Below are positions 1-40,464 of a DNA stretch of 64,000 nt, one piece after another. Positions within the stretch are counted from its first letter, which is position 1. Each line of letters begins with the position of its first letter. This DNA is from Amoebidium appalachense (taxonomy: Eukaryota > Protista > Ichthyosporea), in contig CAVNZM010000022.1 in assembly GCA_963693365.1 (NCBI GenBank), forward strand, positions 22,197-86,196. The letters run 5' to 3'. The position numbers were made by a program, and so were the translations under genes. The notes beneath the pieces were generated by a model. That model ran no database searches. It saw only the letters and a list, made by a program, of their open reading frames with translations, and was not told the origin of the DNA.

Positions 1-184
1 CAGGGCACGAGCGCGGCGCCGTCGCCGCATGTTTGTGTACGCCGACCAATTCCTAGAACCGTACTCGCCGGTGATGTGGAGACTTTTCTTAGCGAAGAGA
101 TCGTAACCATAATCAAGGCTTGAGAAACGCGCGCTGCGGAGACAACAAGAAAGACCATCCCGCGTTCTTCCCGCGCAAGATTGT

Positions 185-905
185 GTACGCAAGCGTCGCG
201 TTGGCCGCGGTGCGGAGCCCAAAGACTCAGAAAAATTGCAAGCGTCGCGTTGGCCGCGGTGCGGAGCCGAAAGACTCTGAAAAATGAAAAATTGCAAGAG
301 TCGTGTTGGCCGCGGTGCGGAGCCCAAAGACTCAGAAAACTTGCAAGAGTCGTGTTGGCGGCGGTGCGGAGCCGAAAGACTCAGAAAAATTGCAAGAGTC
401 GCGTTGGCCGCGGTGCGGAGCCCAAAGACTCTGAAAAATGAAAAATTGCAAGAGTCGTGTTGGCCGCGGTGCGGAGCCCAAAGACTCAGAAAAATTGCAA
501 GAGTCGTGTTGGCCGCGGTGCGGAGCCCAAAGACTCTGAAAAATGAAAAGTTGCAAGAGTCGTGTTGGCCGCGGTGCGGAGCCCAAAGACTCAGAAAAAT
601 TGCAAGAGTCGTGTTGGCCGCGGCGCGGAGCCGAAAGACTCAGAAAAATTGCAAGAGTCGTGTTGGCCGCGGTGCGGAGCCCAAAGACTCTGAAAAATGA
701 AAAGTTGCAAGAGTCGTGTTGGCCGCGGTGCGGAGCCCAAAGACTCAGAAAAATTGCAAGAGTCGTGTTGGCCGCGGTGCGGAGCCCAAAGACTCTGAAA
801 AATGAAAAGTTGCAAGAGTCGTGTTGGCCGCGGTGCGGAGCCCAAAGACTCAGAAAAATTGCAAGAGTCGTGTTGGCCGCGGTGCGGAACCGAAAGACTT
901 TGCAA
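185..905. repeat. Tandem array of 49/56-bp units (105-bp higher-order repeat)
   Basis: Unit aaaattgcaagagtcgtgttggccgcggtgcggagcccaaagactc(ag|tgaaaaatg) repeated about 14 times; 35-aa periodicity in the overlapping ORFs. Confidence 0.97.
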
Positions 906-1086
906 GAGTTGCGTTTTGCCGAAAGCCTTAAAGACTCAAAAGACGAAGACGAAACCGATAAAATACAAGGACCTGAAAATACTTTATTTTCATATACACA
1001 TGACAATACATACAACACAACACACAACGCACAGCGCTGTGGTGGACATTCGTGACCACGTATTCCATTTGATATTCAGATATATT

Positions 1087-1226
1087 TTTGATGGATACAA
1101 ACTTTGGCAGTGCTGACAAACAGAAGCAAAGACTACGAACCGTTGACACATGTCGGTGTGCAATTACATATCTCTATTGCCAACACCGAAACCAAAAGAC
1201 AGAACATGGTGTGTAAATTGAATACT
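1087..1226 (-). repeat. ~140-bp non-coding element, inverted copy at 34213-34351
   Basis: Reverse complement matches 34213-34351 with about 6 substitutions and 1 indel. Confidence 0.92.
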
Positions 1227-1370
1227 GATGGTTGAACACGAAAGCAAAAATAGCCATCGCTGTAGCAGCCTTACGCAATATCACCAATACCATGACCACA
1301 CACACACATCCACGCAACGCCAGCGTTATTGCCTACATGCCTACATGGTCTTGTTGCAGGTCTGACATGC

Positions 1371-2774
1371 CTACATGGTCTTCCTGGCCTTCTTGGCTGG
1401 CTTGGTGGGGGGGGTGGCCTCCCGTTTGCGCCTTGTGCTCTTGCTGGCCTGCATGCCCTCGGCGCTGGGAGCGGCCAGGCGCTTTGCCTTCGGACCGACA
1501 TATCTTGCGAAATCTCGCAGTGTCATAGGGAGCTTCCCCTCCAGTTCCTCCCACTCGACTGAAAGGGGGTCGTCGGCCCGGACAATGTAAATGATGTTGT
1601 TTTGGTTGCGCTCAATGCCGTACGTATTAAGCCAACGGGTGTGGCCCATCGTAGTCTTGTCCTTGCTATTGTATACTAAGGGTTCGAGTTGATCGTAGTC
1701 TCTGAATGCGAAGTTGAGACGGATCTGCACGTGCGCAAAATGCACAGGTGGGGGCCACACTTTTGGGGCTGTGCGACGCTTGTCGAGAAACCCTGCAAGG
1801 AAGCGTCCTAGTGCGGGAAGACGAGAGTCGGCAAGGTGGGATGGCCAGGTAGCATGCTTGTGTTCGATGTCTGCAGCAAGGGTTGCCAGCACATAGGGAT
1901 CGCCCACTTTGCCGATTTTGGGAATGGGGTCGTCTTTTTTGCGAACAAACTCGCCGTTGTAGTGTGCACGTTCTCCCCATTCGTTTGCCTTGGGAAGCTC
2001 CCGGTCGACCCCCCACACCAACACACCCGCGTGCTTCCGAGCCTCCTTGCCACCGGACTTCTTCTTGACTGCCTCCGTGACGGACAGGAGGTTGAATTGG
2101 TCGTCGTGTGTGATGGGTGGCTCTATGGCAAGAACGTTTTTGTTCGTGTCCGAGTGGCCCTGTATGCCCGTGTCATCAGAGTCCGAGTCCGGTGTCTCCG
2201 TTCCCGTGTCCGTGTCCGTGTCCGTGATCGTGATGCACTCTGCGTCCTGTGTCAAACCGTGGTTGTTAATCTTTCCTGCGCGTTGAAGACCTTCCACCCA
2301 ATCTTTGAGGTATTGGCCACAACGCGTTTCTTTCTCGTCTTTCTCGCGGTTAGCGCGGCTGAATACGCAACCGTAGTGGAGGTAACTCTCGTGAAATTCC
2401 ACCGAAGCGATGTAGGTCTCGGCATCCCCACACGACAAGCGACCGAGGACGATGTAGGTGTCCGTCATCGCCTTGCTTAGCTCCGCGGACAAGTTCGGTG
2501 GCTGCTTGTCCGGGTGAAAAGTCTTTGCAACTCTCCTGATCCCGCCCGAGTCTAAGGCCTGGAGTTGTGCAAACTTGGTGGTGAACAGGAGTGTTGACCT
2601 GCCGGCTTCAGCGGCTATGTCTTGGATTCTGGCGGACGGCTTCATGCTTTTCAGGAACAGACGCACGTCATCTTCGAACGTTGGGGATTGGGAGGCAAGC
2701 AAACCGAAACCCCGATGGGCACACTCCGCGTCTAACTGGGTAAAATCAGGAAGGAAGCTGTCGAGGTGCGCCAT
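1371..2774 (-). CDS. Hypothetical protein with J-domain-like HPDK segment; paralogue of 3578-4771
   Basis: Long ORF (ATG of MAHLDS); GIRRVAKTFHPDK...TYIVL; C-terminal blocks RAHYNGE, GRFL, NNIIYIVRAD.PLS.EWEEL...PMTLR.F..YVGPK shared with paralogue. Confidence 0.8.
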   Translation of the reverse strand: MAHLDSFLPDFTQLDAECAHRGFGLLASQSPTFEDDVRLFLKSMKPSARIQDIAAEAGRSTLLFTTKFAQLQALDSGGIRRVAKTFHPDKQPPNLSAELSKAMTDTYIVLGRLSCGDAETYIASVEFHESYLHYGCVFSRANREKDEKETRCGQYLKDWVEGLQRAGKINNHGLTQDAECITITDTDTDTGTETPDSDSDDTGIQGHSDTNKNVLAIEPPITHDDQFNLLSVTEAVKKKSGGKEARKHAGVLVWGVDRELPKANEWGERAHYNGEFVRKKDDPIPKIGKVGDPYVLATLAADIEHKHATWPSHLADSRLPALGRFLAGFLDKRRTAPKVWPPPVHFAHVQIRLNFAFRDYDQLEPLVYNSKDKTTMGHTRWLNTYGIERNQNNIIYIVRADDPLSVEWEELEGKLPMTLRDFARYVGPKAKRLAAPSAEGMQASKSTRRKREATPPTKPAKKARKTM

Positions 2775-2830
2775 ACTGAATGATGTGTCTTTTACTTGTG
2801 TGCACTGAGGGTTTCGACCCGCGTGCCGCG

Positions 2831-3480
2831 TATATATATCGATGTACACCGCGTTGGGCGCTTCAGATATCCAATGAAAATTAAGCTTTCAACACAATAA
2901 GCCAATAGATGAAGAACACGCGACCCACCGCAACCAATCAGACCTTTGTTGAAAACCGTATGAACAAACCAAAAATAATCCCTCCGACTCCTTCCAATGG
3001 CTGGCACCTTGGCGAACTTATGATTGGCCCGTTAACCGTCAGCAAACCAATCATTTCGCGCGCAAATATCTTCACATCATGGCGGACCAATCATATTGCG
3101 ATTTCGATTATTTGATGGTGTTTTGATCCGTGAGCCGCGGAATATATATATATATCGATGTGCACCGCGTTGGGCGCTTCAGACTTGCAATGAAATTTAT
3201 GCTTCAACAATAAACCAATAGATGAAGAACACGCGACCCATGGCGACAAATCAGAGCTTCAAATTTAACCATGTGAACTAATCAAAAATAATTCCTCCGA
3301 CTCCATCCAATGGCTGGCATCTGGGCGAACTTTTGATTGGTCCGCCCGGCCGAAACCGGTTTTTAATTCAGGGCGGACCAATCGAAATAGCAAAGTGACA
3401 CGTGAACCGTCCGCGAACCAATCATTTGGCGCGAAAATATCTTTACATCATGGCGGACCAATCATATTGCAATATCGATT
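2831..3480. promoter_or_regulatory. Duplicated CCAAT-rich bidirectional promoter region (two ~310-bp diverged copies)
   Basis: tatatatatcgatgt.caccgcgttgggcgcttcaga...ccaatagatgaagaacacgcgaccca...acatcatggcggaccaatcatattgc at ~2831-3110 and ~3143-3480, between divergent genes. Confidence 0.65.
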
Positions 3481-3577
3481 TTTTGTCTTGATTTTTTGCC
3501 ATTTGAGATATATAAACAACAGACGCGGAATAAATGGATCACAACCACACAGACAATCAACCAGACGTGGAAAAAAC

Positions 3578-4771
3578 ATGGCGAACAAACTCGTTGTAGA
3601 CTACAAGAGGTTTGACCCAGATTGCATTCACCGCGGTCTGCGCTACCTCGCATCGGTGGAGGGCGACGCCGACAAGTCCGTGTCCGAGTTCATCGACAAC
3701 ACGGATTTTACCAATTTGCCCATTGCGGCGGAGGCGGCTGGCTGCTCGCCGCACCTTCTGACCAAGTGGGTTGGGTGTCTCCAGTCCGCGTCGTTGAGCG
3801 GTATCAAGAAGTTGATCGCCCGTTTCCACGCCGACAAAATCACCACTTGGGCGAGTGAGGAGGAAAAGCAGATATTCAAACGTTCCACCATCATTCTGAC
3901 ACGACTGACCGGGGTCGGTCGGAGCGACGAGTACCGCGAAAACGTAACCAAAAGCACGAGTTTTGCGCGTTTCGGATGCGTCTGCACCCGCGACTCGGAG
4001 AACTTGGAAGAAGGATCGGAGACTTCATGTGGTGCCTATTTGGATGAAATTGTCAAACAGGCAAGTCTTCTCATCGGGAACCGCGACGACGAACAAGCAG
4101 CCTCGCCGTGCCAGTCCCCAAAGCCCCGTGCCCCCCAGAAAGCCCAGCCCGCACCCAAGCCCAAGAGTACACACGGCGAAGACGGCAAACTTCTTGCCAT
4201 TGGGAACGTTCTGTGCGAGGATGAATTCTTTGGCTTGCAAGATTTAATGGTGTGGGGGATCAACTTACCGCTACCCCCTGCCGACGAGAACGGCGTCCGT
4301 GCACACTACAATGGTGAAATTTTCCGCGACAAGGGGGGGCCGATTCCATACTTCGCGTCGTGTGCACCGTATGCCCTGGCTAGCCTCGCATCAGACATGC
4401 CCGAACACCGGAAGATTGCGGCGTGGCAACCCCACCAGGTTGATGACCGCATGCCTGCCAGGGGTCGTTTCCTCCTCGGGGTTTTTCAAAACGGTAAACA
4501 TTGGGGAGCAGAGTTCGTTCATGCGTTGGGCACGTTCGAGCCTCGGTTTCGACACTACGGGCACGTGCACTTTCGTTGTCAGATCAGCAGCACCGAGGAA
4601 ATCGATTACCTCGAATGGTTGTACCAAGCCACCGGCATCAGAACTAACCGCAACAACGTTATCTACGTGGTTCGTGCCGATGGCCCCTTGTCCCCCGAAT
4701 GGGAGGAGCTCCAGTACATGATGCCGATGACCCTCCGCGCCTTTGGCGATTATGTCGGTCCCAAGTTGTAA
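3578..4771 (+). CDS. Hypothetical protein with degenerate J-like HADK segment; paralogue of 1371-2774
   Basis: ORF from MANKLVV; GIKKLIARFHADK; same conserved C-terminal domain. Confidence 0.8.
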   Translation: MANKLVVDYKRFDPDCIHRGLRYLASVEGDADKSVSEFIDNTDFTNLPIAAEAAGCSPHLLTKWVGCLQSASLSGIKKLIARFHADKITTWASEEEKQIFKRSTIILTRLTGVGRSDEYRENVTKSTSFARFGCVCTRDSENLEEGSETSCGAYLDEIVKQASLLIGNRDDEQAASPCQSPKPRAPQKAQPAPKPKSTHGEDGKLLAIGNVLCEDEFFGLQDLMVWGINLPLPPADENGVRAHYNGEIFRDKGGPIPYFASCAPYALASLASDMPEHRKIAAWQPHQVDDRMPARGRFLLGVFQNGKHWGAEFVHALGTFEPRFRHYGHVHFRCQISSTEEIDYLEWLYQATGIRTNRNNVIYVVRADGPLSPEWEELQYMMPMTLRAFGDYVGPKL

Positions 4772-4903
4772 GCAAAGACAAATTGTAAGCAAAGTGGTAG
4801 TGGAGTGTAGTGAGCTCGGGAGTTATATGTTATTTGATTGTCTTTGGGGTTTGTATGTATAAACCCTGCCTGTTCGAACTGGGTTCGTCTTTTTCTGTAT
4901 CTC

Positions 4904-5230
4904 GTCTGATTCTCGTATCACCGCGGCCGGCCGAGTAAATAAAACTCGTTTTTTTTCTAAGTCTGATTCTCGTATCACCGCGGCCGGCCGCGTAAATAAA
5001 ACTCGTTTTTTTTTCTAAGTCTGATTCTCGTATCACCGCGGCACGCGTAAATAAAACTCGTTTTTTTTTCTAAGTCTGATTCTCGTATCACCGCGGCCGG
5101 CCGCGTAATTAAAACTCGTTTTTTTTTTTTAAGTCTGATTCTCGTATCACCGCGGCCGGCCGCGAAATTAAAACTCTTTTTTTTTTTTGGCTAAGTCTGA
5201 TTCTCGTATCACCGCGGCTGGCCGCGTAAA
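4904..5230. repeat. Tandem array, about 6 x 56-60 bp
   Basis: tctgattctcgtatcaccgcggccggccgcgtaaataaaactcg(t)nctaag repeated; contains palindrome cgcggccggccgcg. Confidence 0.95.
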
Positions 5231-5289
5231 TGTTTCTCGAATCACGCTGTTTTTTCTACGTGCAAAGACGCGTGCACCCGCCAAACAAA

Positions 5290-5670
5290 ATGTCGGTTAC
5301 CGTCATGCGGCCACTCACGGCCCTTTCGGACGCGGTGCTGCTAGGGCGCGCCATGCGCAACGATGAATACTCAACGGTGCGGCGCCTACGGGACAATGTC
5401 GAGCGCCTGGAGCACGAGGTGGGCCGCAGGGCGGAGCTCGTGGAGATGTACGCGCGGCAGCTGGACGAATTTCGCCGCGACCTGCACGCCGTCTACGACA
5501 AGGTGGGAGAGCTTATAGACCGACTGGCTGACCTGCAACACGACCAGGATGGGTTCGTGCGCGAGATCGTGCGCCTGCGGTGGGTCGTCATGCAGATGGG
5601 CGACGACCTCACCCAGCTGCACCGCGAGCCCGCGCGCGCCCCCCTGCACCGGTGGGGCGCGCCGAAATAA
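5290..5670 (+). CDS. Small coiled-coil hypothetical protein
   Basis: ORF MSVTVMRP..., high-GC3 codon usage, heptad pattern; stop directly abuts next ATG. Confidence 0.65.
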   Translation: MSVTVMRPLTALSDAVLLGRAMRNDEYSTVRRLRDNVERLEHEVGRRAELVEMYARQLDEFRRDLHAVYDKVGELIDRLADLQHDQDGFVREIVRLRWVVMQMGDDLTQLHREPARAPLHRWGAPK

Positions 5671-6792
5671 ATGTACGGGCATGATATGGACGTTTCTTTC
5701 GAGGGTGTAAACCCCGACGTTGAAGATCACGCACGGTCCCCGACGTCGACAAAGCAGCAGGCGTTGGAGGCCTTAAATGAAATGAGGACACTGAAGGGCT
5801 ATCTTCGTGTACAGGCTGAGATCAGAAAGGCGGTCACCAAGGGCGCGGGTAGAAAGCATATGTTGGATTACCTTGGGATTTCCGTCGATTCCGACATCGA
5901 CACCGAGTTGTCAAAACAACTTGGCGTGATGCTGCAACGGTCGACGCCAAGCGAGGACATCGTCGACGACATCCTCGCGAATCGGCCGGAAGTATCGCGA
6001 GTGCACGCGGAAATGGGGGGCGGCGGGCGGTTGCTGCTCTACGGCCCAAGTGGTGCGGGCAAGCTTACGTGTGTCTTCCAGGTGTGCAAGACCCTTGACC
6101 TCTTCCCATGGGTCCTGACGGTCCAGGACCTGCTCGATCCGGACACCCGTCGTGCCATCCAATGGATCGCAAAGAACGACAAGCGCGCCGTGTTGGTCAT
6201 CCGTGATGCTCACAATCTGACGGACGAATCGATGATGGTGCTTACACTGGAGTTGGTGGACAGACGCATGGTAGTCGGTATTGCCAGTACGGCTTCAGAG
6301 AAGGGTTGTTCGGTGCGATCCTATTTCACCAGCACACTGGCTTGGCCAGCGGTGCGTGACGACGAGTCGCGCGTGGTGGTCGAGGCACTGGTCCAGTCAT
6401 GTTTAGGCGCAGATCCGGAGTACCCATCGGCGACATCGGCTGTTGTAACCCAGCTAGCCATCGCCGCGACCGACCTAACCATCGCCGATATAGTGAACAC
6501 GGCCAGGATTGCACAGAAGAACACGGCATCCCAGATCTCTCCCGCCGGTCACCCGTATAGATACTACGACGCATCGAGCGGGTATACAGATGTCGTGTGG
6601 AACCTAGCACTGGCAAACAGGAAACGGGGTGCAAATGGTACAGAGATTGGGCATGCTCAACTAAGAGACTTTATACGGGAACAATCGTATACCAAGGCCT
6701 CGGTTTACTTGACCCACGTCGTCCTCCTAGCGTGGCTCACGGCAATGCTGCACAGCACAGTGGACGCGACCGATTTTGCCTGCTACACATAA
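5671..6792 (+). CDS. Divergent AAA+ ATPase (RFC-like Walker A)
   Basis: LLLYGPSGAGKLT Walker A; degenerate Walker B VLVIRDAHNL. Confidence 0.7.
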   Translation: MYGHDMDVSFEGVNPDVEDHARSPTSTKQQALEALNEMRTLKGYLRVQAEIRKAVTKGAGRKHMLDYLGISVDSDIDTELSKQLGVMLQRSTPSEDIVDDILANRPEVSRVHAEMGGGGRLLLYGPSGAGKLTCVFQVCKTLDLFPWVLTVQDLLDPDTRRAIQWIAKNDKRAVLVIRDAHNLTDESMMVLTLELVDRRMVVGIASTASEKGCSVRSYFTSTLAWPAVRDDESRVVVEALVQSCLGADPEYPSATSAVVTQLAIAATDLTIADIVNTARIAQKNTASQISPAGHPYRYYDASSGYTDVVWNLALANRKRGANGTEIGHAQLRDFIREQSYTKASVYLTHVVLLAWLTAMLHSTVDATDFACYT

Positions 6793-6794
6793 TT

Positions 6795-7910
6795 ATGGAA
6801 TCCATGGACCCCGATGTGCTCAACCAGATCCTGGCGGGAAGACCCAAAAAAATCAAGCTAGCCATTTCGCCTGATCCAGAATCGTTTGGTCCCGCGCACG
6901 CCACAATGGTCACGTCCCTCGGTGTGCTGCTCGCCGTGCTGCACGCATGGCTCACACAGCCGAGCGGAGCGCCTCTGATCAATGTAACGTCGTCGGGCGA
7001 CGGCACGGTGATGGTCCCGGGCATCGACTGGCGCGTGCTCGCGCTGCCGATGTTTGCGAATGCGTTCCACCCCCGCCACCTACCCAACCCAACCGCAAGC
7101 ATGGAGGAGTACGCAGAGAACTGGCTGAGGCTGGAACCAGACACGACCCCCGAGGCTTTCGATGCCGCGCTCGCGGCAGCCATCGAGCGTTTGGCGGCTC
7201 CCGTGCACACAAAAGCCTTGCAGCGCCGCCGCGTCAAGGCCGAGCACCCCGTTCCGCCGACCACCATGGCCGCGCTGAGCGTGCGCGTGGACCCGGGGTT
7301 CGACAAGGTGGCCGCGCAGTTCTCCGACCTCGTGCGCCAGAGCAAGCCGGCCGACTCCATCGAGATCACCAAGCGCGACCGCGAGATCAAGCTGCTACAG
7401 CAGTGCCTGATGGAGCTGGAGCTCGAGTACTTCCGCCTGCAGGCCGAGAACGAGCAGCTCAAGGCGCAGGAGGCCGCGCTCGAGAAGAACTTCCTGCTTC
7501 CGTGGTTCAAGGCCCAGGAGGACGTGTCGCAGCGCATGGCCATGTTCGAGGCCGCCGAGCGCGACGAGTACACGCGCATGCGCAACTTCCAGCAGCAGGT
7601 GTCCGTGCAGGCGTTCAACAGCAGCCTGCAGGCGCAGAACAACGCGCTGCTGGCGGCATCCGGCGCGGCCATGAACGCGCGGCCCACGGCGGACTTCGCG
7701 GCCATGCTCGCGCGCAAGCGGGAATCCGAGCTGGACGACTTCGGCGACAGCCTCAAGCGCATGCGGGCCGACGACATGGGCATGGGCATGGGCCAGCAGC
7801 AGGCGCCCGGACCGATGCAGATGCCCGGGGTCAACCCCGACACGTACCGCGACAACATGACCATGCGCGAGGGCGTGGCGTTCCCGTATCCGCGCACGGA
7901 CGCGGCGTGA
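6795..7910 (+). CDS. Hypothetical coiled-coil protein
   Basis: ORF from MESMDPD, strong GC3 bias, coiled coil RDREIKLLQQCLMELELEYFRLQAENEQLK. Confidence 0.7.
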   Translation: MESMDPDVLNQILAGRPKKIKLAISPDPESFGPAHATMVTSLGVLLAVLHAWLTQPSGAPLINVTSSGDGTVMVPGIDWRVLALPMFANAFHPRHLPNPTASMEEYAENWLRLEPDTTPEAFDAALAAAIERLAAPVHTKALQRRRVKAEHPVPPTTMAALSVRVDPGFDKVAAQFSDLVRQSKPADSIEITKRDREIKLLQQCLMELELEYFRLQAENEQLKAQEAALEKNFLLPWFKAQEDVSQRMAMFEAAERDEYTRMRNFQQQVSVQAFNSSLQAQNNALLAASGAAMNARPTADFAAMLARKRESELDDFGDSLKRMRADDMGMGMGQQQAPGPMQMPGVNPDTYRDNMTMREGVAFPYPRTDAA

Positions 7911-7997
7911 GCAGGCTGTATTATAAAGTTCGATTCGGGTGTTTATTGTTTTGAGATGCCCTGTTCCATTCACGAAAAATCAGTGGCATCCACAAGC

Positions 7998-8891
7998 ATG
8001 GTGGTGTACGTCATCGACCTGTTCTGTGGCGCGGGAGGGTTCAGCGAGGGCGCGCGACAGGCGGGTGCGGTGGTGGCGGTGGCGGTCGACAGCTGGGACG
8101 TGGCGCTGGAGGTGCACCGCGCCCGCCACCCCGGGGCCGTGCACATGCTGCGCACCATAGGCGACGTGCCCGCAGAGGACTTTGCACGCGAGCTGATGGC
8201 GGCCGTGCCGGCCATGGGCGAGGGCGACTGGCTGCACGTGCACGCGAGCCCACCGTGCCAGGAGCTGTCGGAGATGCGCGCGGGCAGAGGGTGTGTGGGT
8301 GACACGTTGCGGCTGGTGAGATATACACTGGACGTGCTCGACTGCCTGCCGTACGACAGCTTCTCGATGGAGGAGGTCAACAACCCCGAGCTCAGGGCAC
8401 TACTGGACGAGGAGGGTGTGCCGTATGCGGTGCTAAACATGTTGGAGTATGGCGTGTGCCAGACACGCAGGCGTTTATTTGCATACGATGGGTGGAGCCC
8501 ATACGCCATACCCCAAACCCCCGCCCCCAACTTGCAAACCATACTCGATACTACACCCAATGCGGTGTGGCTTACGGCTTCCAGTATTTCCGAAAAGCGG
8601 ATGCGGGCATGGAGAGAGGGTCAAAAAATAGAGTGCAGTAAAACAACGCCACCACCGAAATGCAGGCCCATAACGATGAATCCATACTTCTACACGGTTA
8701 TAAAAAGCCCGTTCTATATCTGGGATGAAAACTTTGAATTGGTGCGCGCAATCAATAAGAACGAACTTGAAAAGCTCCAGACATTTCCACGCGGCTACAT
8801 CACAGCTCAAAACGTATCTTCAAAAGAAACATTAATTGCCAACGCGGTGCCGCCGGCAATGGCTCGCGCTATCATCGACACGATTTTATGA
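7998..8891 (+). CDS. DNA (cytosine-5)-methyltransferase, copy 1
   Basis: Motif I IDLFCGAGG, IV SPPCQ, VI MEEV, VIII QTRRRLF, IX ELEKLQTFP, X IANAVPP. Confidence 0.93.
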   Translation: MVVYVIDLFCGAGGFSEGARQAGAVVAVAVDSWDVALEVHRARHPGAVHMLRTIGDVPAEDFARELMAAVPAMGEGDWLHVHASPPCQELSEMRAGRGCVGDTLRLVRYTLDVLDCLPYDSFSMEEVNNPELRALLDEEGVPYAVLNMLEYGVCQTRRRLFAYDGWSPYAIPQTPAPNLQTILDTTPNAVWLTASSISEKRMRAWREGQKIECSKTTPPPKCRPITMNPYFYTVIKSPFYIWDENFELVRAINKNELEKLQTFPRGYITAQNVSSKETLIANAVPPAMARAIIDTIL

Positions 8892-8924
8892 ACCAATCGA
8901 GGGCCAAAATAGAATCCCCGCCCA

Positions 8925-9153
8925 TCACTCGTGCAACGGGCTGAGGGGATTCAGTCTCCAACCCTTGCCCTCTTTGACGATGATCACACCACCAGAAGTC
9001 TGTCTCCGCCACGAATGGCCACCCCCGCCCAAAACATGGCTGTATTTGGTCAGGTGTTGTGTCTGGGTGATCACTGCACCCTCGCGCGCCACGCCGCGCA
9101 CGTCGCCCCTGCCGTGGATGAACGCCGCGGCCAGCATGTGCAGCGTCAAGTCG
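8925..9153 (-). pseudogene. Orphan 3'-end fragment (variant allele) of the 10221-13724 gene
   Basis: LTLHMLAAAFIHGRGDVRGVAREGAVIT identical to the large ORF, then a diverged tail ending SPLHE*. Confidence 0.88.
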
Positions 9154-9203
9154 GGTGTTTATTGTTTGGATGCCCGTCCACAAAGATCAGTGGCATCCAC
9201 AAG

Positions 9204-10156
9204 ATGGTGGTACGTCATCGACTGTCTGTGGGCGGGAGGGCAGCGAGGGCGCGCGACAGGGGGTGGGTGGTGGCGGTGGCGGCGACAGCTGGGACGTGGC
9301 GCTGGAGGTGCACCGCGCCCGCCACCCCGGGGCCGTGCACATGCTGCGCACCATAGGCGACGTGCCCGCAGAGGACTTTGCACGCGAGCTGATGGCGGCC
9401 GTGCCGGCCATGGAGGCCGGCGACCACCTACACGTGCACGCGAGCCCGCCGTGCCAGGAGCTGTCTGAGATGCGCCTGGGGCTGGGGCGTGTGGGTGACA
9501 CGTTGCAGTTGGTAAGATACACATTGGACCTCCTCGATTGCGTGCCGTACGACAGCTTCTCAATCGAGGAGGTCAACAACCGCGGGTTGAGAGAGCTGTT
9601 CGCGGAGGAAGGCGTGCCGTACATTGTGCTGAACATGTGGGAGTATGGGGTATGCCAGACACGTAGGCGTTTATTTGCATATGACGGTTGGAACCCTTAC
9701 GCTATGCCCAGATCCTCGCCCCCGACGCTACTAAGCCAACTAGACCCAACCCCGCACGCTACGTGGATTACCCCCGCGAGCATTTACCCAATACGAATGC
9801 AAACATGGAGGGAGACAAGGGAGTGGGACCAATGGAAAATACAAGGACCATCGACATGGAAGTTACTATCCAAGAAAACCCAGGTGTTTCCGACATGGAA
9901 ATCGCTACCTAGCAATGCATATTTCTACACGGTCGTGCGAAGTCCGTTCTACCTATGGAACGAATGTTTCGAATATATAAGACGGATCCAAACATCTGAA
10001 TTGGAAAAAATACAGACATTCCCATCGGGGTATGTCACGGCTCGAAAGGTGTCTTCAAAAGAGAAAAAAGAAAAATTAATAGCAAATGCCGTCCCACCGG
10101 CGATGGCCCGCGGTATTATGAAAACAATTTCGGCGGAGCGGGTGCGGACAGAATAG
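9204..10156 (+). CDS. DNA (cytosine-5)-methyltransferase, copy 2 (5' end frameshifted by 1-2 bp deletions, possibly sequencing error)
   Basis: SPPCQ, IEEV, QTRRRLF, ELEKIQTFP, IANAVPP; N-terminal half near-identical to copy 1, variable region different. Confidence 0.85.
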
Positions 10157-31818: not shown

Positions 31819-32269
31819 ATCTCGCGGAGTCTACGAATTCTTACGCATTTTCGGCCTAGCGATTTAGTACATTGTGGCAGCTTATTTGGCCAGGGCTGGG
31901 TTTTGTACGTTTTCTTTTTATCAAAGAGTCGCGCAGCCAATCGTTCACTTCCGATGAACCAACAACCAATCGTTATTTCGATAGGAAATCGGTGATTGGA
32001 TGATATTCAGCCAACAAATGGGCTGTTGCCATGTGTCATTAATGATTGGTTTGTCGAAATGTCTCGCATTTTTCTTGACTTGTTGGATCGCTGATCTTCA
32101 ACCAGTCATATATCTACAAATTGCTTTTCTGTTATTTTAATTGGCTAGACGTCATGCAAGTGTTTTGGGCTAAAAGATTCCCGTGCTGTGATTGGTTGCT
32201 CAATCGTATCACGTTGGAAGATGCATCGGTATGTTGTTTTGCTTTATTGAGTCTCTCGGGTCGGACGTT

Positions 32270-32695
32270 CTACTCCGAGTCGCCGTCGTCGAGGATGGAA
32301 TCTGTTTCTATATAGTTGTCCTTGTCGACGTGTTTGAGTGATTGCTTTGTGGCGAGGTCTTTGTCCGGTATGGCAGTCAGGAAGGATACCAGGTCGTTGG
32401 CCTTTTTCGTGTCCTTGAAGTACGTTTCGAGCTGACGGCGGAGATACTGTTCGCTTAGTTGTGGCTTTTTGATTGATTCTTGAAGAATCAGAAGGTCTTT
32501 CGTGGGAAGCTCGAGTGACCTGACATTTCCAGACGACATGTACTTCAGAATGGCCTTCTTTATAGTATTCATTTTCTTGGTAACAGGTTTTGTCTGTGCC
32601 GCGTGCTCCTTGATCTGTGCGTGGAGGGTTGCATAGTCACGCAAAACGCCCTTCAAGCTCTCTACATTGGAGATCTCGGTGTTTGGTTTTCCCAT
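32270..32695 (-). CDS. Small NCLDV-type protein (DUF5760-like)
   Basis: Pattern Y..L..QIK......K...KK...I...ILKYM....V..L......L......KKPQL....L...L..YF. Confidence 0.55.
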   Translation of the reverse strand: MGKPNTEISNVESLKGVLRDYATLHAQIKEHAAQTKPVTKKMNTIKKAILKYMSSGNVRSLELPTKDLLILQESIKKPQLSEQYLRRQLETYFKDTKKANDLVSFLTAIPDKDLATKQSLKHVDKDNYIETDSILDDGDSE

Positions 32696-32891
32696 TTGCT
32701 ATTACACACACATAATATTTTGTGGTGTTTTCGGCGATGTCGTGGTGCCTACGTCATCGAGTCTTGGTTCTGCTTGCGTCATCGAGTCTTGTTCTGCTTG
32801 CGTCATCGACGATTATAAATGACGATGTCATCGACCGCGAGCCCGACCGACGTTTCGATCATTGGTTGGATTTGTCCGTGTGAACCCCAAG

Positions 32892-34133
32892 ATGCGTTTT
32901 GCGACGACCGGGGCGAGTTGTGTGCCGCTGTGCTTTTTCAACCATCCTGTCGAAGGAGCCTCCGTGTTCCTAGCCCGACCCCGTGCCTACAATCCATTTG
33001 GGGGTGTCGAGAGGTGGAGCCTTGAGACGGGCCCCGTTGGCTTCGCGAGCGCTGGTCTGGCGCGGTTTTGCGAGTTGACCACAGCGTACGTCGTGCTGGT
33101 AGTCGATTATCCGACGTTTGTTGTGTGGGGCAAATGTACAATCTCGTTGGTTAATCGCCATCGCGCGGAACCTGGCGTTGGCCAATCAGCGTTGCTGCGC
33201 GCGTCACCGGGCAGTGCAAACGCGGATAGGCGGGTTGGGGCCGCGTCGGGTGACATACTCGCGCTGGACGTCTTGCTGCCGTTCGATGTAACCGGTGCGC
33301 GTCTCGTTGGATACAGCGGTCGCCACGGGGTCGTGGTATTTTTGATCCACAGCAGCCCAGATCTGGGTGACTGGGCCTGTCCGCAGCTCCGGGGATATGG
33401 GACCGGTACTGCCGGGGCTGGGAAAGGACCCGGGTTGCCGCTTTGGTCGATGGACCGACATGTGGTCTCCGAGCATCCGTGTTCTGTGGGCGACTCACTT
33501 GTTGTGTTGTGTCGGGGAGAGCGAGGATCGACGTTTGTTGTGTCGGTTGATTGGGTCACGGGTGCGCGGAACTGGAGTGTCTGTCTGGGTGGGTGGACGG
33601 GCGCGATGGGGGTGTTGTCGGTGTCGAGTGTCGATATCCGTGTTCTGTACCACAATCATGCGCCAGGTGAGGACGGGACGCTCGCGGTGGTGGACGCGAT
33701 CGGTCTGCGGGACGGCCGACTTCTTGGGGAATGCAGAGTGGATATGCTGACGACTTGTAGACCTCATTGGTGCGGTGATGAAGTCGGGTGTGCATTCTGT
33801 TCAAAGGCACCCCTCGAGCCCACACATCGATACTTTGCCAAGCGTGCGTTATGTACTTGTTGGGTGGATATGTACGAGAGGACGGTGTTGTGCCGCGGGG
33901 GCGACCGATTGTATGTTGGTCGCCTGGGTTTCAGTAGAGGGGATAGCGATGTGCTGATATACGAAGTCGGCGCTGACGATGTGGTGCGTCTTGTCAGCCA
34001 GCATCGCGTGTTTCTGGATGGTGTCGTGCACGCGCTGACCATGAGTGTCGCCAGTCGATTCGTTGTTTTGGGGGCACACGTGACCGCCGATGGAGGGAGT
34101 ATCTTTCAGGTTTTTCGGTGGAAGATCGAGTGA
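32892..34133 (+). CDS. Hypothetical beta-rich protein
   Basis: 414-codon ORF, V/G-rich, segments such as VVSVDWVTGARNWSV reminiscent of a beta-propeller. Confidence 0.55.
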   Translation: MRFATTGASCVPLCFFNHPVEGASVFLARPRAYNPFGGVERWSLETGPVGFASAGLARFCELTTAYVVLVVDYPTFVVWGKCTISLVNRHRAEPGVGQSALLRASPGSANADRRVGAASGDILALDVLLPFDVTGARLVGYSGRHGVVVFLIHSSPDLGDWACPQLRGYGTGTAGAGKGPGLPLWSMDRHVVSEHPCSVGDSLVVLCRGERGSTFVVSVDWVTGARNWSVCLGGWTGAMGVLSVSSVDIRVLYHNHAPGEDGTLAVVDAIGLRDGRLLGECRVDMLTTCRPHWCGDEVGCAFCSKAPLEPTHRYFAKRALCTCWVDMYERTVLCRGGDRLYVGRLGFSRGDSDVLIYEVGADDVVRLVSQHRVFLDGVVHALTMSVASRFVVLGAHVTADGGSIFQVFRWKIE

Positions 34134-34212
34134 TGTGTGGGCTCCTATTGCCCGGTGTACTAACGATTTGAAGCTACACAGCTGGCTATTTTTGTTTTCG
34201 TGCTCGCTTATT

Positions 34213-34351
34213 AGTATTCAATTTACACACCGTGTTCTGTCATTTGGTTTCGGTGTTGGCACTAAGATATGTAATTGCACACCGACATGTGTCGACGGTT
34301 CATAGTCTTTGCTTCTGTTTGCCAGCACTGCCAAAGTTTGTATCCATCAAA
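34213..34351 (+). repeat. ~140-bp non-coding element, inverted copy of 1087-1226
   Basis: About 95% identity to the reverse complement of 1087-1226. Confidence 0.92.
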
Positions 34352-34437
34352 CATTATATATAAACTGTATCTGTATCTGTGTGTTGTTCCCCGTTCCGTG
34401 CATGCTCGATAATAGCAAGTAAAATAATGGGTTAGTC

Positions 34438-35418
34438 TCATATGACCACTGATTCGATGTATCCTCGGGTGGGTGCGGCGTCCCTTGCAGGGCAGCTATG
34501 TGTGTGTTGCATTTGTGTTGTGGATTGTGCGTACGGGTCGAGCTTGCGTTCGTGGCCGACAAAGAAATTTGTCGTGAGAGTCGCGATTGTTCGGCTTGAC
34601 GCGAGTGTCACTTGGTATGCCTTGAGGGATGCACATGCAAATGCTTTGTCGTCGAAGAAAGACTCGCATCTCGCCAGTGTTTTTGAGATTGTTGTCGAGC
34701 TGGATTTGACGGCCGTGACCGTTCCACAGTCGTGCAGTGGAAACGCAACATATGTGCCTTCAAAAGCACCCTTGACGGTCCAACAGGAGCTCTGTCTGTC
34801 TCCAGAGAAGTGGATCAGTCCTGAAGATATTGCCCCGTGAACTGTCCCGTCGTATGTCATCCACGGAGACGATCCGTGTGTGAATACGCGGCCGCCGTGT
34901 ACATCCAGAAATGCAATTCTATGGATGTTTGGGTCCCTCGATGTGGCCGTTTTCTGTTGGGGTTCGTTATTTTCCTGGTAGAGTCTTTTGTAATTGGCGA
35001 GTTCGTGGTGAAGCCTAATGTTATCCTTTTCCGTCTCTTGTAATGAATTTATAAGCCTGTTCTGATTATTTAAGAGCTTGATCGCATTGCTTATTTGCGA
35101 CATGATATTTTCCAATCCCTTCTCGAGTGGATCGTCTTTGGTTTTTTCTGTTGTGCCTGGTTGCAAATGAGCAGCCATCGTCGTGAAATGGTTCAAAATT
35201 TTGAGTGTCTGTGTGGAGGTTCTGTTAAACATGTTTATTATATTTTTAATGTCGTCTATTTTGTTTGGGTCGTCGACATCAGTGCCACCCCCAACTGTTC
35301 CCGATCCAGCGGTGTCGCTTTCTTTTGGCATTTTCGATAACAATCTGACGATGTCATCGTGTGTGGCGCTCAGTGAATTCCGAATTCCGCTTAGAATTTC
35401 TTCGTTGTCGGTTGACAT
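34438..35418 (-). CDS. Hypothetical protein with coiled coil (326 aa)
   Basis: ATG ORF MSTDNEEIL..., starts just beside the 134-bp array. Confidence 0.65.
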   Translation of the reverse strand: MSTDNEEILSGIRNSLSATHDDIVRLLSKMPKESDTAGSGTVGGGTDVDDPNKIDDIKNIINMFNRTSTQTLKILNHFTTMAAHLQPGTTEKTKDDPLEKGLENIMSQISNAIKLLNNQNRLINSLQETEKDNIRLHHELANYKRLYQENNEPQQKTATSRDPNIHRIAFLDVHGGRVFTHGSSPWMTYDGTVHGAISSGLIHFSGDRQSSCWTVKGAFEGTYVAFPLHDCGTVTAVKSSSTTISKTLARCESFFDDKAFACASLKAYQVTLASSRTIATLTTNFFVGHERKLDPYAQSTTQMQHTHSCPARDAAPTRGYIESVVI

Positions 35419-35499
35419 TTCTGCTTATCATTGCTGTGAAAATATCGACACCGCCCGAGCGACAAATTATTGGTCTCGTAACAGACACGCCAATCGGCT

Positions 35500-36962
35500 A
35501 GTCTGGTGGGACGGAAGCACGGGTTCTGTGTGGCGACCAATCGGAACGCGCGGTTGGGGCGTGGTCGTGGTGACGGGGCTGCGGTCAAGAGTAGAAGCAT
35601 CATCGAAGACCCTGTCGTGTCGGACGCGCAATCTGATTGGTGGGACGGAAACACGGGTTCTGTGTGGCGACCAATCGGAACGCGCGGTTGGGGCGTGGTC
35701 GTGGTGACGGGGCTGCGGTCAAGAGTGGCGAGCATCATCGAAGACCCTGTCGTGTCGGACGCGCAATCTGATTGGTGGGACGGAAACACGGGTTCTGTGT
35801 GGCGACCAATCGGAACGCGCGGTTGGGGCGTGGTCGTGGTGACGGGACTGCGGTCAAGAGTAGGAGCATCATCGAAGACCCTGTCGTGTCGGACGCGCAA
35901 TCTGATTGGTGGGACGGAAACACGGGTTCTGTGTGGCGACCAATCGGAACGCGCGGTTGGGGCGTGGTCGTGGTGACGGGACTGCGGTCAAGAGTAGGAG
36001 CATCATCGAAGACCCTGTCGTGTCGGACGCGCAATCTGATTGGTGGGACGGAAACACGAGTTCTGTGTGGCGACCAATCGGAACGCGCGGTTGGGGCGTG
36101 GTCGTGGTGACGGGGCTGCGGTCAAGAGTGGCGAGCATCATCGAAGACCCTGTCGTGTCGGACGCGCAATCTGATTGGTGGGACGGAAACACGGGTTCTG
36201 TGTGGCGACCAATCGGAACGCGCGGTTGGGGCGTGGTCGTGGTGACGGGACTGCGGTCAAGAGTAGGAGCATCATCGAAGACCCTGTCGTGTCGGACGCG
36301 CAATCTGATTGGTGGGACGGAAACACGGGTTTCTGAGTGGCGACCAATCGGAACGCGCGGTTGGGGCGTGGTCGTGGTGACGGGACTGCGGTCAAGAGTA
36401 GAAGCATCATCGAAGACCCTGTCGTGTCGGACGCGCAATCTGATTGGTGGGACGGAAACACGGGTTTCTGAGTGGCGACTAATCGGAACGCGCGGTTGGG
36501 GCGTGGTCGTGGTGACGGGACTGCGGTCAAGAGTAGGAGCATCATCGAAGACCCTGTCGTGTCGGACGCGCAATCTGATTGGTGGGACGGAAACACGGGT
36601 TTCTGAGTGGCGACTAATCGGAACGCGCGGTTGGGGCGTGGTCGTGGTGACGGGACTGCGGTCAAGAGTAGGAGCATCATCGAATACCCTGTCGTGTCGG
36701 ACGCGCAATCTGATTGGTGGGACGGAAACACGGGTTTCTGAGTGGCGACTAATCGGAACGCGCGGTTGGGGCGTGGTCGTGGTGACGGGACTGCGGTCAA
36801 GAGTAGGAGCATCATCGAAGACCCTGTCGTGTCGGACGCGCAATCTGATTGGTGGGACGGAAACACGGGTTTCTGAGTGGCGACTAATCGGAACGCGCGG
36901 TTGGGGCGTGGTCGTGTGGTCAAGAGTTCGAAGACCCTATCGTGTCGAACGCGCAATCTGAT
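35500..36962. repeat. Tandem array, ~11 x 134-135 bp
   Basis: tggtgggacggaaacacgggtt...gaagaccctgtcgtgtcggacgcgcaatctgat units starting ~35504, 35638, 35773 ... 36850. Confidence 0.97.
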
Positions 36963-37197
36963 GTGTGATATTTCTGTTGTTGTTTTTTTTTGTTAATTTA
37001 TCCTCCTTCTGTGATTGATGTACAACAATCTTAAACCGGGCGGTCCAATTAATGGGTGTCTCTTGATACTTTGTTTTTGTCGCTACGTTGTGTGTCTCCT
37101 GGCTATAAGAAGTGTTGCGTGTGTGTCAGTATGCTCATCCTACAGTCGCAGCTTTCTCTTCACATCTACTCTAGCTCTCAACGAGGCTGTTTTCAAC

Positions 37198-38399
37198 ATG
37201 TCTAACCTTAGCTCTCGAGACTACGACTTGGGGGTTGATGGTGCTGCAATCGAGGCGGCCCTTGCCATTCCTAGGAATGTCAAAAACCTTGTGCGCGTTG
37301 CTGGGTTCGGATGTGTTGTCCGTGATCTGATGGCTACTTTTGCCGACTATACCCACGACGAGGGGCTCAAGGAAATCCTTTCTGCTATCAAGTGTATGTT
37401 ACCTGAAGGGATACCGCAATACCCGAGGGGTTTCACTTCAGAAGACGAAGAGAGTCTGAGGACCGCCATCGTTTCTTACTGCAAGAGTAGCAACCGCAAC
37501 GCCAAGATTGCTCGGAATGTCGAATCACGTGCCGGTGATCTCGCCCAGTCTATGGGTGCCGCCCCCATGGCCCCGCCTCAAGATGTCGCCCCCATCGCCC
37601 CGCCTCAAGATGTCGCCCCCATGGTTCCGCCTCAAGATGTCGACACCGAGATGGCCGAGCAAGACCCAGATGATACTAAGGCGGGTGATCACAATTCGGC
37701 AAGGAGCTCCAGTAGTAGGTCTGATACCGAATCGTCTTCGTCTTCATCTGATGACGATGACAACGATGACAACGATGACAACGATGACAACAAGGGGGCT
37801 ATCTGTCTCAAAGAGTTCAACAGTCTTATGCAGAAGAATCGTGAGAGCCAGGACAACGTGGTTATCGATGTGCCAGCCTCGCGGTTTGCTATGTTCGATG
37901 AACTGGGCAATCCGATCTTTGTCGAGTCACGCCATCCAATCGCCGCCCCCCAAACCGCTCCGATCGATGTTTCCTCTGACGATGACACCACTCAAGATCG
38001 TCCGCCTGTCGCTCAGCCCGTTGTCTCTAATGGGATCAGTAAGACCACTGGCCGCAAGTTGGCGATTCCATCGGTGGGCAAGACCCCCCCGGGACTGCCG
38101 AGGCACTTCGGAAGATCGCGAATGCCGGTGTTCAAAAGCACTCCAAGCCCAAGAAGTCTAAGCCCAAGAAGTCTGAGAAGTCTAAGTCGGCTCCCTCGCC
38201 CCAATCGCCCGCACCCAACAACATTGCCGACTGTAATAACCCAGAGAGTAGAAAACGTGCATTTTCTGAATATATGGATACTTGCAAGAATATTTGTAAA
38301 CTGGCAAAGAAGAATATATTGACACAGGAGCAGGCTAAACAGTTTAAAATTGCGGCCTGGCAGAAGAGAATCGAAGACGAGTCAAAGCCTGATGAATAG
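37198..38399 (+). CDS. Hypothetical low-complexity protein; probable frameshift near 38080-38140
   Basis: ORF MSNLSSRD with APPQDVAP repeats and acidic tract; another frame continues KPKKSKPKKSEKS...RKRAFSEYM...DE* at 38399. Confidence 0.65.
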
Positions 38400-38654
38400 G
38401 TTTTGTGTTGCTTTACGATGTGTTACACGGATGTAAATCATGTCATTAGTGTCGATGTATGCGTGTTCTTAGTCTTAACAGTAGATTCGGCTTCTATTAG
38501 TATGCATATGTGTTTCTGTGCTTGTTTCTTATATCGACTTGGCTTGTCAATATATATATATATATATGTAAAAAGTTTCATTGTGTTGTTACTCGATATG
38601 TTTGGTGAATATTTTTAAATAAACCCCCCCCCCCCCCCCCCGGCCCCCGGCCCC

Positions 38655-39160
38655 CCTGCCTCACGTGCCTCACGTGCCCCCCCTGCCTCACGTGCCCCCC
38701 TGCCTCACGTGCCTCACGTGCCCCCCCTGCCCCCCCTGCCTCACCTGCCTCACGTGCCTCACCTGCCTCACGTGCCCCCCCCCTGCCCCCCCTGCCTCAC
38801 GTGCCCCCCCCTGCCTCACGTGCCTCACGTGCCCCCCCCCCCCCTGCCCGGGTCAAGACTTAGCTCGTGTAGACTTAGCTTTTTTCTCTCTCTCTCTCTC
38901 TCGTGTAGACTTAGCTTTTTTCTCTCTCTCTCTCTCTCGTGTAGACTTAGCTTTTTTCTCTCTCTCTCTCTCGTGTAGACTTAGCTTTTTTCTCTCTCTC
39001 TCTTTTCTCTCTCTCTCTCTCTCTCGTGTAGACTTAGCTTTTTTCTCTCTCTCTCTCTCTCTCGTGTAGACTTAGCTTTTTTCTCTCTCTCTCTTTTCTC
39101 TCTCTCTCTCTCTCTCGTGTGGACTTAGCTTTCTCTCTCTCTCTCTCTCTCTCTCTGTCT
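38655..39160. repeat. Compound repeat: (tgcctcacg)n followed by [tcgtgtagacttagc(t)n(ct)n] x~7
   Basis: Directly visible. Confidence 0.9.
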
Positions 39161-39248
39161 GTGCCCGTGTCCATACTTAGACGTTTTGCTCCCTGTCCCC
39201 GTTCCCCGTTCCCGGCCTATTTCTGATTGGTTTCTTGTCTTTACTTTA

Positions 39249-40106
39249 TTAGGCAAATAGGCGCGTGATGCTGTTGGTCGGGACACACAGCTTGCCGGTG
39301 GGTCGGGCAGTGACGTCAGCCACGAATCTGGGCGCGATGATTGGCTTCACTTCCGGCTCTGGAATGTGTGGCTCCATCAACACCTCGAAGTCTTGCACCA
39401 TGCTTGGGTCGGTCCAGCCACGTGCCTGTGTGCAGTAAACACGCCAATGGGCTCTCGCCACGTGCACGGCCTCCGTGTAGTCGGTGTATGTGCCGATCTT
39501 GTGGTATTGCCCTTTCTTGTGCGCCATTGGAAACCTCACCTCGAAATAACCTTCGCGGGTGTTAACGAACCGGCATGGCTGCCCTGCGATTCGTTTCTTG
39601 AGTTGGTTGTACTCAGTCGGCCGTATGCAGAGATTGGTCCGTCGGTTGTCGGCTTTTGATTGGTTTCGGTGATCGATCTGTAAGCCGCCACTTGTGGTGA
39701 TAAGGCCTTGGAAATAGCACACCAGTTGATGAGCCGTTGGTGCCTCTGTTTCGTGTTGGTTCCACCCGGGCAGGTACAGCCGCAGATAGCCTCCACTGCT
39801 ACATACCCATCCCACACGTGTCGCCCATGCCATGTCCTCTTCAGAGAAACGCCAATCGCACCCATCCATGTGTATCTTATCAGCACCCACTACCTGCATC
39901 TCATTGGCTTCACTCCACGTGTGCATCACCGGCTCGTCATCCTTATCGTACCAGTACAGTCCGAATCCACCGCCCTTTGCCCTGTTGGCTTCATACCATG
40001 AAATTAACTGGCTGGGCTCGTATATGCATAGAGCCACCAGAAATTTACACCATTGCGGTGCTTTGTGTATATTGTCGTTGTTCACTACCTGCTGCACTGG
40101 CAACAT
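39249..40106 (-). CDS. HNH endonuclease with AP2-like C-terminal domain
   Basis: HQLV...QIDHRNQSKADNRRTNL.....YN; then FEVRF...YHKIGTYTDYTEA...A. Confidence 0.85.
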   Translation of the reverse strand: MLPVQQVVNNDNIHKAPQWCKFLVALCIYEPSQLISWYEANRAKGGGFGLYWYDKDDEPVMHTWSEANEMQVVGADKIHMDGCDWRFSEEDMAWATRVGWVCSSGGYLRLYLPGWNQHETEAPTAHQLVCYFQGLITTSGGLQIDHRNQSKADNRRTNLCIRPTEYNQLKKRIAGQPCRFVNTREGYFEVRFPMAHKKGQYHKIGTYTDYTEAVHVARAHWRVYCTQARGWTDPSMVQDFEVLMEPHIPEPEVKPIIAPRFVADVTARPTGKLCVPTNSITRLFA

Positions 40107-40464
40107 ATGTTATGCACACATAATATTTTCCTCACCCCACCCCGCGTGCCTCCCGTGCCTCCTGTGCCTCCTGTGCCTCCTGTGCCTCCTGTGCCTCCTG
40201 TGCATTCCCCGTTCCCCGTTCCCCGGCCTGATCCTTAGTGTGATACTATGTCATCGCGTTTAAGAAATCTGTCTGTTGTCATTGGCCACTTACCCACTTA
40301 GAAGTGGGTAATGCTCTGTCGTTTGTTTTGTCTCCTTTTTTTTTTCTTTTTTTATTTTAAGTGGGAAAAGTGGGAAGTGGGAAATAGATTGATCGCGATC
40401 GGATCGGAGGTGGTTTGGTGTGGTGTGATCTCAAAGTTACCAGGCCACGTGACTAGTCCAATAT

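Follow-up and report, generated by a model that had tools for sequence, protein, structure and literature searches.

A gene-dense, intron-free block of virus-like genes adjoining host-type DNA in Amoebidium appalachense: probable fragment of an endogenous giant-virus genome

The window analysed here, a stretch of 64,000 nucleotides from the ichthyosporean Amoebidium appalachense (assembly GCA_963693365.1, contig CAVNZM010000022.1, positions 22,197 to 86,196), carries a block of virus-like genes on both strands, the visible part of which occupies positions 1..40106, is open at the left window edge and ends on the right between 38.5 and ~40.5 kb. Curation yielded 24 intron-free open reading frames (ORFs) of at least 126 aa with a coding share of 72% of 1-40,300, together with one damaged gene at ~17.9-18.5 kb. 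In a blind count, 19 non-overlapping ATG-initiated ORFs of at least 250 aa spanned 66% of 1-40,300, whereas 30 simulated sequences of the same composition gave on average 1.9 ORFs and 4% coverage (maximum 5 ORFs, 10%) and the count at 40.3-57.2 kb gave 2 ORFs and 9% coverage; the gene density of the block is therefore far above chance. The GC content is 57% (50% in the comparison DNA) and the CpG observed/expected ratio is 1.10 at 1-29.3 kb and 1.08 at 29.3-40.3 kb, compared with 0.73 in the remaining window. The right boundary of the block is not sharp, since the CpG change point lies at 34.7-37.1 kb (tandem arrays masked), yet related contigs reach at least 38.5 kb, and the composition shades into host-type DNA across 35-41 kb. 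No Rfam families or tRNAs were found in the window. An earlier note, made from the letters of this DNA alone, had described ~30 tightly packed, intronless and mostly intact ORFs in CpG-rich DNA; the dense packing, the lack of introns and the CpG richness (~1.1 vs 0.73) were borne out, whereas the count came to 25 with the damaged gene included and at least five genes proved to be damaged in this copy. A gene-dense, intron-poor block, the organisation of a giant endogenous viral element (GEVE), thus extends over 1-40.3 kb.

Families were assigned by a Pfam scan of the block ORFs with further searches of the orphans, and affinity to giant viruses is carried by a DUF5760-like protein, by a YqaJ exonuclease (tree and neighbours) and by a helicase. 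For the DUF5760-like protein (32270..32695, minus strand), which resembles a giant-virus family, 28 of 30 Atlas matches (0.94) fell in DUF5760 clusters that are 100% viral, most commonly Nucleocytoviricota. The YqaJ/lambda-type exonuclease (28225..28881, plus strand) has nine relatives at 53-73% identity, all in Logan contigs only, and nine at 31-36%, with none found in 185,579 prokaryotic genomes at the sensitivity of the search. A YqaJ phylogeny had been proposed in the earlier note as a check, and in the resulting tree, which was rooted at the midpoint and comprised 31 rows including 12 of the 19 viral loci (near-duplicates and one short match were omitted), a 19-row clade (support 100/97) separate from the phage-like rows joined the window protein and its close relatives to six IMG/VR copies. 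An A32 ATPase and a topoisomerase II lie beside YqaJ at one IMG/VR locus (L005). Among the 80 metagenome YqaJ loci, three were scanned: one (L046) has VLTF3, PCNA, patatin and ribonucleotide reductase beside the YqaJ relative and another (L024) has DUF5901 and a C5-methylase nearby.

The third of these genes (19039..20527, plus strand) encodes a DUF5906 superfamily-3 (SF3) helicase of the D5/C962R type with a frameshift near its 5' end in this copy; judged from its sequence, it comprises the helicase domain only, the primase domain being absent. It has eight relatives, two of them in Logan contigs at 45% and 38%, and aligns over 293 columns (probability 98.45) with the C962R-type primase-helicase of a 160-kb viral contig, while two small viral contigs (L020 and L021) carry DUF5906 helicases at 26-27%. 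L020, a 12.5-kb IMG/VR contig, holds several large ORFs without a Pfam match beside its helicase; we take it to be polinton-like from its gene layout, for which Pfam gave no support. A further protein of 1167 aa (10221..13724, minus strand) is predicted to adopt a superfamily-2 (SF2) helicase fold: all listed fold matches in the PDB are superfamily-2 helicases and among viral proteins the best fold match comes from Heterosigma akashiwo virus, although a PDB sequence search gave no significant match. No relative emerged when viral contigs were scanned with the helicase, YqaJ, patatin and DUF5760 proteins as single sequences or with an alignment of the SF2 protein; other alignment-based scans gave distant relatives only, at 21-40% in viral contigs and 31-46% in metagenomes.

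The other genes of the block begin on the left with two paralogous orphans, 34% alike, of 467 aa (1371..2774, minus strand) and 397 aa (3578..4771, plus strand), the first of which possesses an HPD motif within what we assume to be a J-domain-like helix pair, Pfam having given no match. On the plus strand follow a small coiled-coil orphan (5290..5670), a divergent P-loop/AAA-like protein of 373 aa (5671..6792) with weak matches only and no significant match in a PDB sequence search, a 371-aa orphan with a coiled coil (6795..7910), and a C5 cytosine DNA methyltransferase with intact FxGxGG and PPCQ motifs (7956..8891). An RFC-like reading of the 373-aa protein was unsupported by the searches. 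The second C5-methyltransferase (9170..10156, plus strand), a tandem paralog (68%) of the first, has lost motif I through a 5' frameshift in this copy. Between the two methyltransferase genes, at 9051-9153, lies a 94% duplicate of 103 bp from the 3' region of the SF2-like gene (10386-10488), which marks the edge of the tandem duplication.

Beyond the SF2-type gene lie a triple zf-MYND protein with an internal duplication (14111..15595, plus strand), a 586-aa orphan without a match in Atlas or among phages (15830..17590, minus strand), the damaged gene, the 5' part of which is a poly-T smear (17930..18481, plus strand), and a C2H2 zinc-finger protein (18545..18976, plus strand). The helicase is followed by a patatin-like phospholipase (21208..22119) and a Fic-domain protein (22116..22913), both on the minus strand, and by three plus-strand genes: a 342-aa orphan (23422..24450), for which a PDB sequence search found no significant match and a single-sequence fold reached only a pLDDT (predicted local distance difference test score) of 34; a single-ring AAA ATPase with a Vps4/spastin/Cdc48-like domain (24889..26091), the 3' frameshift of which is absent from the contigs of four compared runs; and a T5orf172 protein (26636..28027) with a KilA-N-like N-terminus recognised via a relative. 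To the right of YqaJ are an 812-aa protein with a long E/R/K repeat and a coiled coil (29380..31818, minus strand), a 413-aa orphan (32892..34133, plus strand), a 326-aa orphan with a coiled coil (34438..35418, minus strand), an acidic low-complexity orphan with a 3' frameshift in this copy (37018..38322, plus strand) and, as the last virus-like ORF and a putative member of the block, an HNH endonuclease between simple repeats (39249..40106, minus strand). Integrase, transposase and PCNA gave no match among the block ORFs. The gene content had been largely anticipated: YqaJ, T5orf172, patatin and two C5-methyltransferases are present by Pfam, and the estimate that about half of the ORFs are orphans compares with 10 of 24 for which Pfam and further family searches found no credible family. 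The predicted D5-like helicase holds for its helicase domain and not for a primase, and KilA-N/T5orf172 holds for T5orf172, KilA-N having been matched only in a relative (P0050; E 5e-5, slightly below the cut-off) and not in the block protein.

Repeats are interspersed with these genes. Tandem arrays of 49/56-bp units (189..899), of a 59-bp unit (4904..5231) and of a 135-bp unit (35504..36916; 10.5 copies, 98% matches) are present, and a 188-bp inverted repeat, with arms 90% identical at 1080..1266 (minus strand) and 34173..34359 (plus strand), encloses 33 kb with one tandem array just outside each arm. This pair was considered as the termini of the element and rejected, given its 90% identity, the position of both arms downstream of a stop codon and the continuation of the family beyond the right arm; it is the only long inverted repeat, and no near-identical terminal inverted repeats closing the element were found. 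The divergent paralogs at 1371-2774 and 3578-4771 are separated by an intergenic unit of ~310 bp (2811..3485) that is duplicated and carries TATA-like as well as CCAAT boxes. Over 8.1 kb of intergenic DNA there are 32 CCAAT boxes where 13.3 would be expected (maximum 27 of 300), eight of the 32 lying in one duplicated unit. The damaged genes of this copy are at least the second methyltransferase (5'), the gene under the poly-T smear (17.9-18.2 kb), the helicase (5'), the AAA ATPase (3') and the ORF at 37.0-38.3 kb (3'). None of the contigs that cover them agrees with the breaks near 25.9 and 38.1 kb (4/4 and 3/3 runs with cover), which are therefore either private to this copy or assembly errors. 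The smear itself (17930-18230), which obscures the 5' part of its gene, has the look of a poorly polished long-read stretch and resembles an assembly artefact.

Block sequence recurs in public runs, 15 of the 24 listed containing at least half of the words of 19.0-28.9 kb. These 15 date from 2011, 2020 and 2024, belong to two named studies and one unnamed sample, and bear three organism labels, two of which count as one species label; one of them may be the source of the window itself. No RNA runs were among the listed runs matching the block. Contigs were compared in four runs over 18.7-38.5 kb (runs X17-X20, with a small share only, were left out), and in all four 30/30 bins were covered, by 209 to 2605 contigs, many at 90-99% identity. 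About 40-55% of the compared contigs are at least 99% alike and the remainder are below 99%, with deletions and alternative flanks present. Run X2, with 1.08 Mb assembled in all (~0.5-0.7% of the other runs) and an estimated depth near 0.1 for single-copy DNA, still covers the block fully. The many variant contigs, found even in this small run, indicate a likely multi-copy family, and the block is likely to be far above single copy unless the X2 library was enriched, contig depth not being usable as a copy number. That the block is likely multi-copy, with variant contigs in public runs, is the new element of this analysis and had escaped the earlier note.

In the helicase ORF, 18 of 20 listed differences between variants are synonymous, compared with 22-30% expected (p ~1e-8 or less). 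Because these differences are mostly silent, selection was likely acting on the protein as the variants diverged, which would be the case for an active element or for viruses that replicate and not for dead duplicates. In run X4, 170 of 483 changes are C>T or G>A and 85 are the reverse, an excess which fits methylated chromosomal copies.

The block is joined, in the assembly sequence alone, to a spliced gene and retroelements. The flank is eukaryotic, and the LTR (long terminal repeat)/microsatellite host-type DNA described earlier was recovered as a GT-AG spliced gene, a Copia element and repeats beyond 38.6 kb. The spliced host gene (51660-53573, minus strand) has at least three GT-AG introns containing long C runs, and no Pfam family was found in the pieces scanned; the young Copia element (57286-63687) has LTRs identical over 710 bp, a 5-bp target duplication and a gag-pol split near 60.4 kb. 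All 17 long C/G runs and 15 of the 16 dinucleotide repeats of the window lie beyond 38.6 kb. Only 8 of 268 CpG in the Copia interior fall within CGC or GCG, and these trinucleotides together occur 9 times in Copia against 100 expected from dinucleotides, compared with 1951 against 1870 expected in the block. The scarcity in Copia may stem either from prolonged erosion in the methylated context of the host or from avoidance of that context. CGC/GCG is the context reported as hypermethylated in A. appalachense (Sarre et al. 2024, PMC11244446), with which the avoidance in the flanking Copia fits well but indirectly, and on this signature the host is likely an ichthyosporean of Amoebidium type; a literature search found no report of CGC/GCG loss in Amoebidium transposon sequences.

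The SF2-type protein gave 12 matches among 1.84 billion representatives, of which only one was full-length: KAI9549678.1 (P0027), a hypothetical protein of Daphnia sinensis on a contig of 183,011 bases, 34% identical over 1141 columns. Amoebidium grows on water fleas, and the 183-kb contig may be viral, may derive from an epibiont or associated protist, or may be Daphnia DNA. The published habitat of Amoebidium is the freshwater arthropod cuticle (PMC11244446), and another ichthyosporean is cited as a Daphnia parasite in a review (PMC11286789). A literature search returned no paper tying D. sinensis to such a virus, and term searches within two surveys, PMC10827195 and 10.1101/2025.04.19.649669, gave no hit.

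Taken together, the block is probably a silenced fragment of a Nucleocytoviricota genome in a protist chromosome, one of repeated related insertions. This reading draws on direct observations, namely the gene density, the gene families, the eukaryotic flank, the variant contigs in public runs and the mostly silent helicase differences, and it agrees with the earlier note, which had favoured a recent endogenous viral element and had named a giant transposon with viral cargo as the other candidate, still the main rival. We suggest that the virus would replicate with help from the host nucleus, to which the CCAAT/TATA-type intergenic signals may point; its SF3 and SF2 helicases, YqaJ and methyltransferases would handle its own DNA, and the MYND, C2H2, Fic, patatin and AAA genes could serve host control. 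In an abortive infection, host repair or end resection of the YqaJ type might bring pieces into the chromosome with no integrase involved. The variants would then stem from related viruses that replicate as a population, some duplication having followed later, and host cytosine methylation likely keeps the insertions silent. The present copy would be young, since CpG and CGC/GCG have not yet been lost.

Several observations weigh against this interpretation. Capsid (MCP), PolB, A32, VLTF3, RNA polymerase and JmjC are absent among the ORFs scanned in the visible 40 kb, and with no core marker gene the viral group cannot be fixed. The DUF5760 score is 22.2 bits against a Pfam cut-off of 27, the YqaJ tree is without cellular eukaryotic rows and rooted at the midpoint only, one of the three scanned metagenome YqaJ loci (L082) has cell-like neighbours and no viral marker, and the SF2 model is weak (pLDDT 59, template-modelling score ~0.2). 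No other block gene was matched in any of 102 fetched loci, so that there is no gene order in common with a known virus, and YqaJ, patatin, Fic, MYND, C2H2 and AAA genes also occur in cells. As to selection, only 2 of 7 differences in the C2H2 gene are synonymous (4 of 6 in four other ORFs), and the 40 differences tested are the best supported of 702, with strains mixed. The junction at 38.5-41 kb is known from the assembly alone, and a high-copy family across several organism labels fits less well with the mostly isolate-specific insertions reported in PMC11244446.

Some of these points also speak for other explanations. The likely multi-copy state, the ~40-55% of compared contigs that are at least 99% alike, the missing capsid and polymerase genes, the internal tandem gene duplications and the inverted repeat around 33 kb with an array just outside each arm would all be expected of a giant self-copying mobile repeat of the host genome that has acquired genes from giant viruses, either of the Plavaka type or a new unit that lacks a capsid and relies on a helicase and YqaJ of its own. 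We regard this as unlikely, though it is the principal competitor: no Plavaka, DDE or tyrosine-recombinase match was obtained among the block ORFs, whereas Plavaka repeats are rich in tyrosine recombinases (PMC11244446), the arms of the 90% identical inverted repeat lie just past stop codons in the manner of a common 3' element, and related contigs extend beyond it as far as 38.5 kb. A giant virus that persists in culture, free or as an episome, and was misjoined to host DNA by the assembly would account for a block abundant enough to assemble within a 1.08-Mb contig set, for the poor local assembly at the poly-T smear, for a junction seen only in the assembly and for an SF2 relative on a 183-kb contig. 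It is nevertheless very unlikely in view of the occurrence of many variants with deletions in runs of 2011, 2020 and 2024, of the twofold C>T/G>A excess in X4, as for methylated chromosomal copies, and of the gradual shift to host-type composition across 35-41 kb.

An endogenous polinton-like virus or adintovirus is more improbable still. DUF5906 helicases do occur in the small contigs L020 and L021 and Amoebidium has adintoviruses of ~30 kb (PMC11244446), but the block exceeds 40 kb without a protein-primed PolB, capsid, packaging ATPase, integrase or Dam methylase, and DUF5760, YqaJ and patatin indicate larger viruses. Least credible of all is an ordinary host gene cluster or a bacterial insert; the MYND, C2H2 and AAA ATPase domains are of eukaryote type, yet the block is intron-free, unlike the flanking gene, the affinities of DUF5760 and YqaJ are viral, and prokaryotic genomes yielded no YqaJ relative at the sensitivity stated. 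A bolder reading, which we advance as distinctly doubtful, is that the block, instead of being a dead relic, is a selected high-copy unit derived from a giant virus and still maintained in several isolates. This could be a capsid-less self-amplifying replicon, with its own SF3/SF2 helicases, YqaJ recombination nuclease and methyltransferases and with the tandem arrays proposed as origins. Alternatively, it could be an undescribed persistent giant virus of ichthyosporeans in its integrated form, the free genome of which would be represented by the 183-kb Daphnia contig.

The published account of Amoebidium offers the closest comparison with the favoured reading of an endogenous giant-virus fragment. 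It describes 90 chromosomal and 42 unplaced giant-virus insertions (132), intron-poor, up to 200 kb long and none with a full core set, of a lineage related to Medusavirus/Clandestinovirus; these are silenced by 5-methylcytosine and mostly isolate-specific, contain 10 of the 18 Amoebidium DNA methyltransferases and show an enrichment of functions in membrane fission and tubulin depolymerisation (Sarre et al. 2024, PMC11244446). This content and enrichment are matched by the methyltransferases and the AAA ATPase of the block, and the block shares with the GEVEs the form of a gene-rich, intron-poor island among transposons, the helicase domain of a D5-type protein, C5-methyltransferases and transcription-factor domains, an ATPase of membrane-fission/microtubule-severing type, an incomplete core set and the host CGC/GCG signature. 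It differs in that its visible part lacks capsid, VLTF3, A32, PCNA and JmjC and its clade is not fixed, and in being likely high-copy with selected variants across organism labels, whereas the published insertions are mostly isolate-specific. Amoebidium also carries adintoviruses and Plavaka giant repeats (PMC11244446). The latter resemble the block in being up to 50 kb, intron-poor and repetitive, but the block ORFs lack a Plavaka transposase or tyrosine recombinase and point to giant viruses, not to dinoflagellates/red algae; the one tyrosine recombinase of the window belongs to a separate element (49.2-50.4 kb) outside the block. With adintoviruses and polinton-like viruses the block has in common a compact, intronless, in its case likely multi-copy, virus-like insert with an SF3 helicase, while it is larger and without PolB, capsids, packaging ATPase and clean terminal repeats.

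The block is likely a new member of the published kind of insertion and would work like a GEVE, with a gene set that is probably undescribed, though PMC11244446 may already show these genes or include the insertion itself in its catalogue. The suggestion that the lineage might be undescribed stands in that no close relative was found among viral contigs, and not in so far as such Amoebidium insertions have been published (PMC11244446). Since such insertions have already been described in this protist, a further one is only a small surprise. Of wider use is a likely high-copy family with purifying selection, for which repeated infection and amplification after insertion could be told apart through copy ends and flanks. 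A virus lineage otherwise represented by insertions alone might have a complete relative in the 183-kb Daphnia contig, and the very young Copia, with almost no CGC/GCG, offers a simple clock for the residence of foreign DNA in a methylating host.

Several smaller features were noted in the flank. Near the right end of the block, a MITE-like (miniature inverted-repeat transposable) element at 40464-40660 has perfect 48-bp inverted repeats and 8-bp flanks with one mismatch, and a 157-aa ORF with an 18-residue repeat and no family (41023-41496) lies between the block and host DNA. An older Copia RNase H fragment (45443-46054, minus strand) is 72% alike to the young Copia. The tyrosine-recombinase element with split inverted repeats (46116-51161) contains three 730-885-bp repeats that are 98-99% alike, two direct and one inverted between them, together with a gag-like ORF and a frameshifted tyrosine recombinase, and no reverse transcriptase was seen in it; we take it to be DIRS/Ngaro-like. 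Finally, an ORF at 56387-57046, which starts with a C2H2-like finger and an acidic stretch and has no Pfam match, is possibly a transposase fragment.

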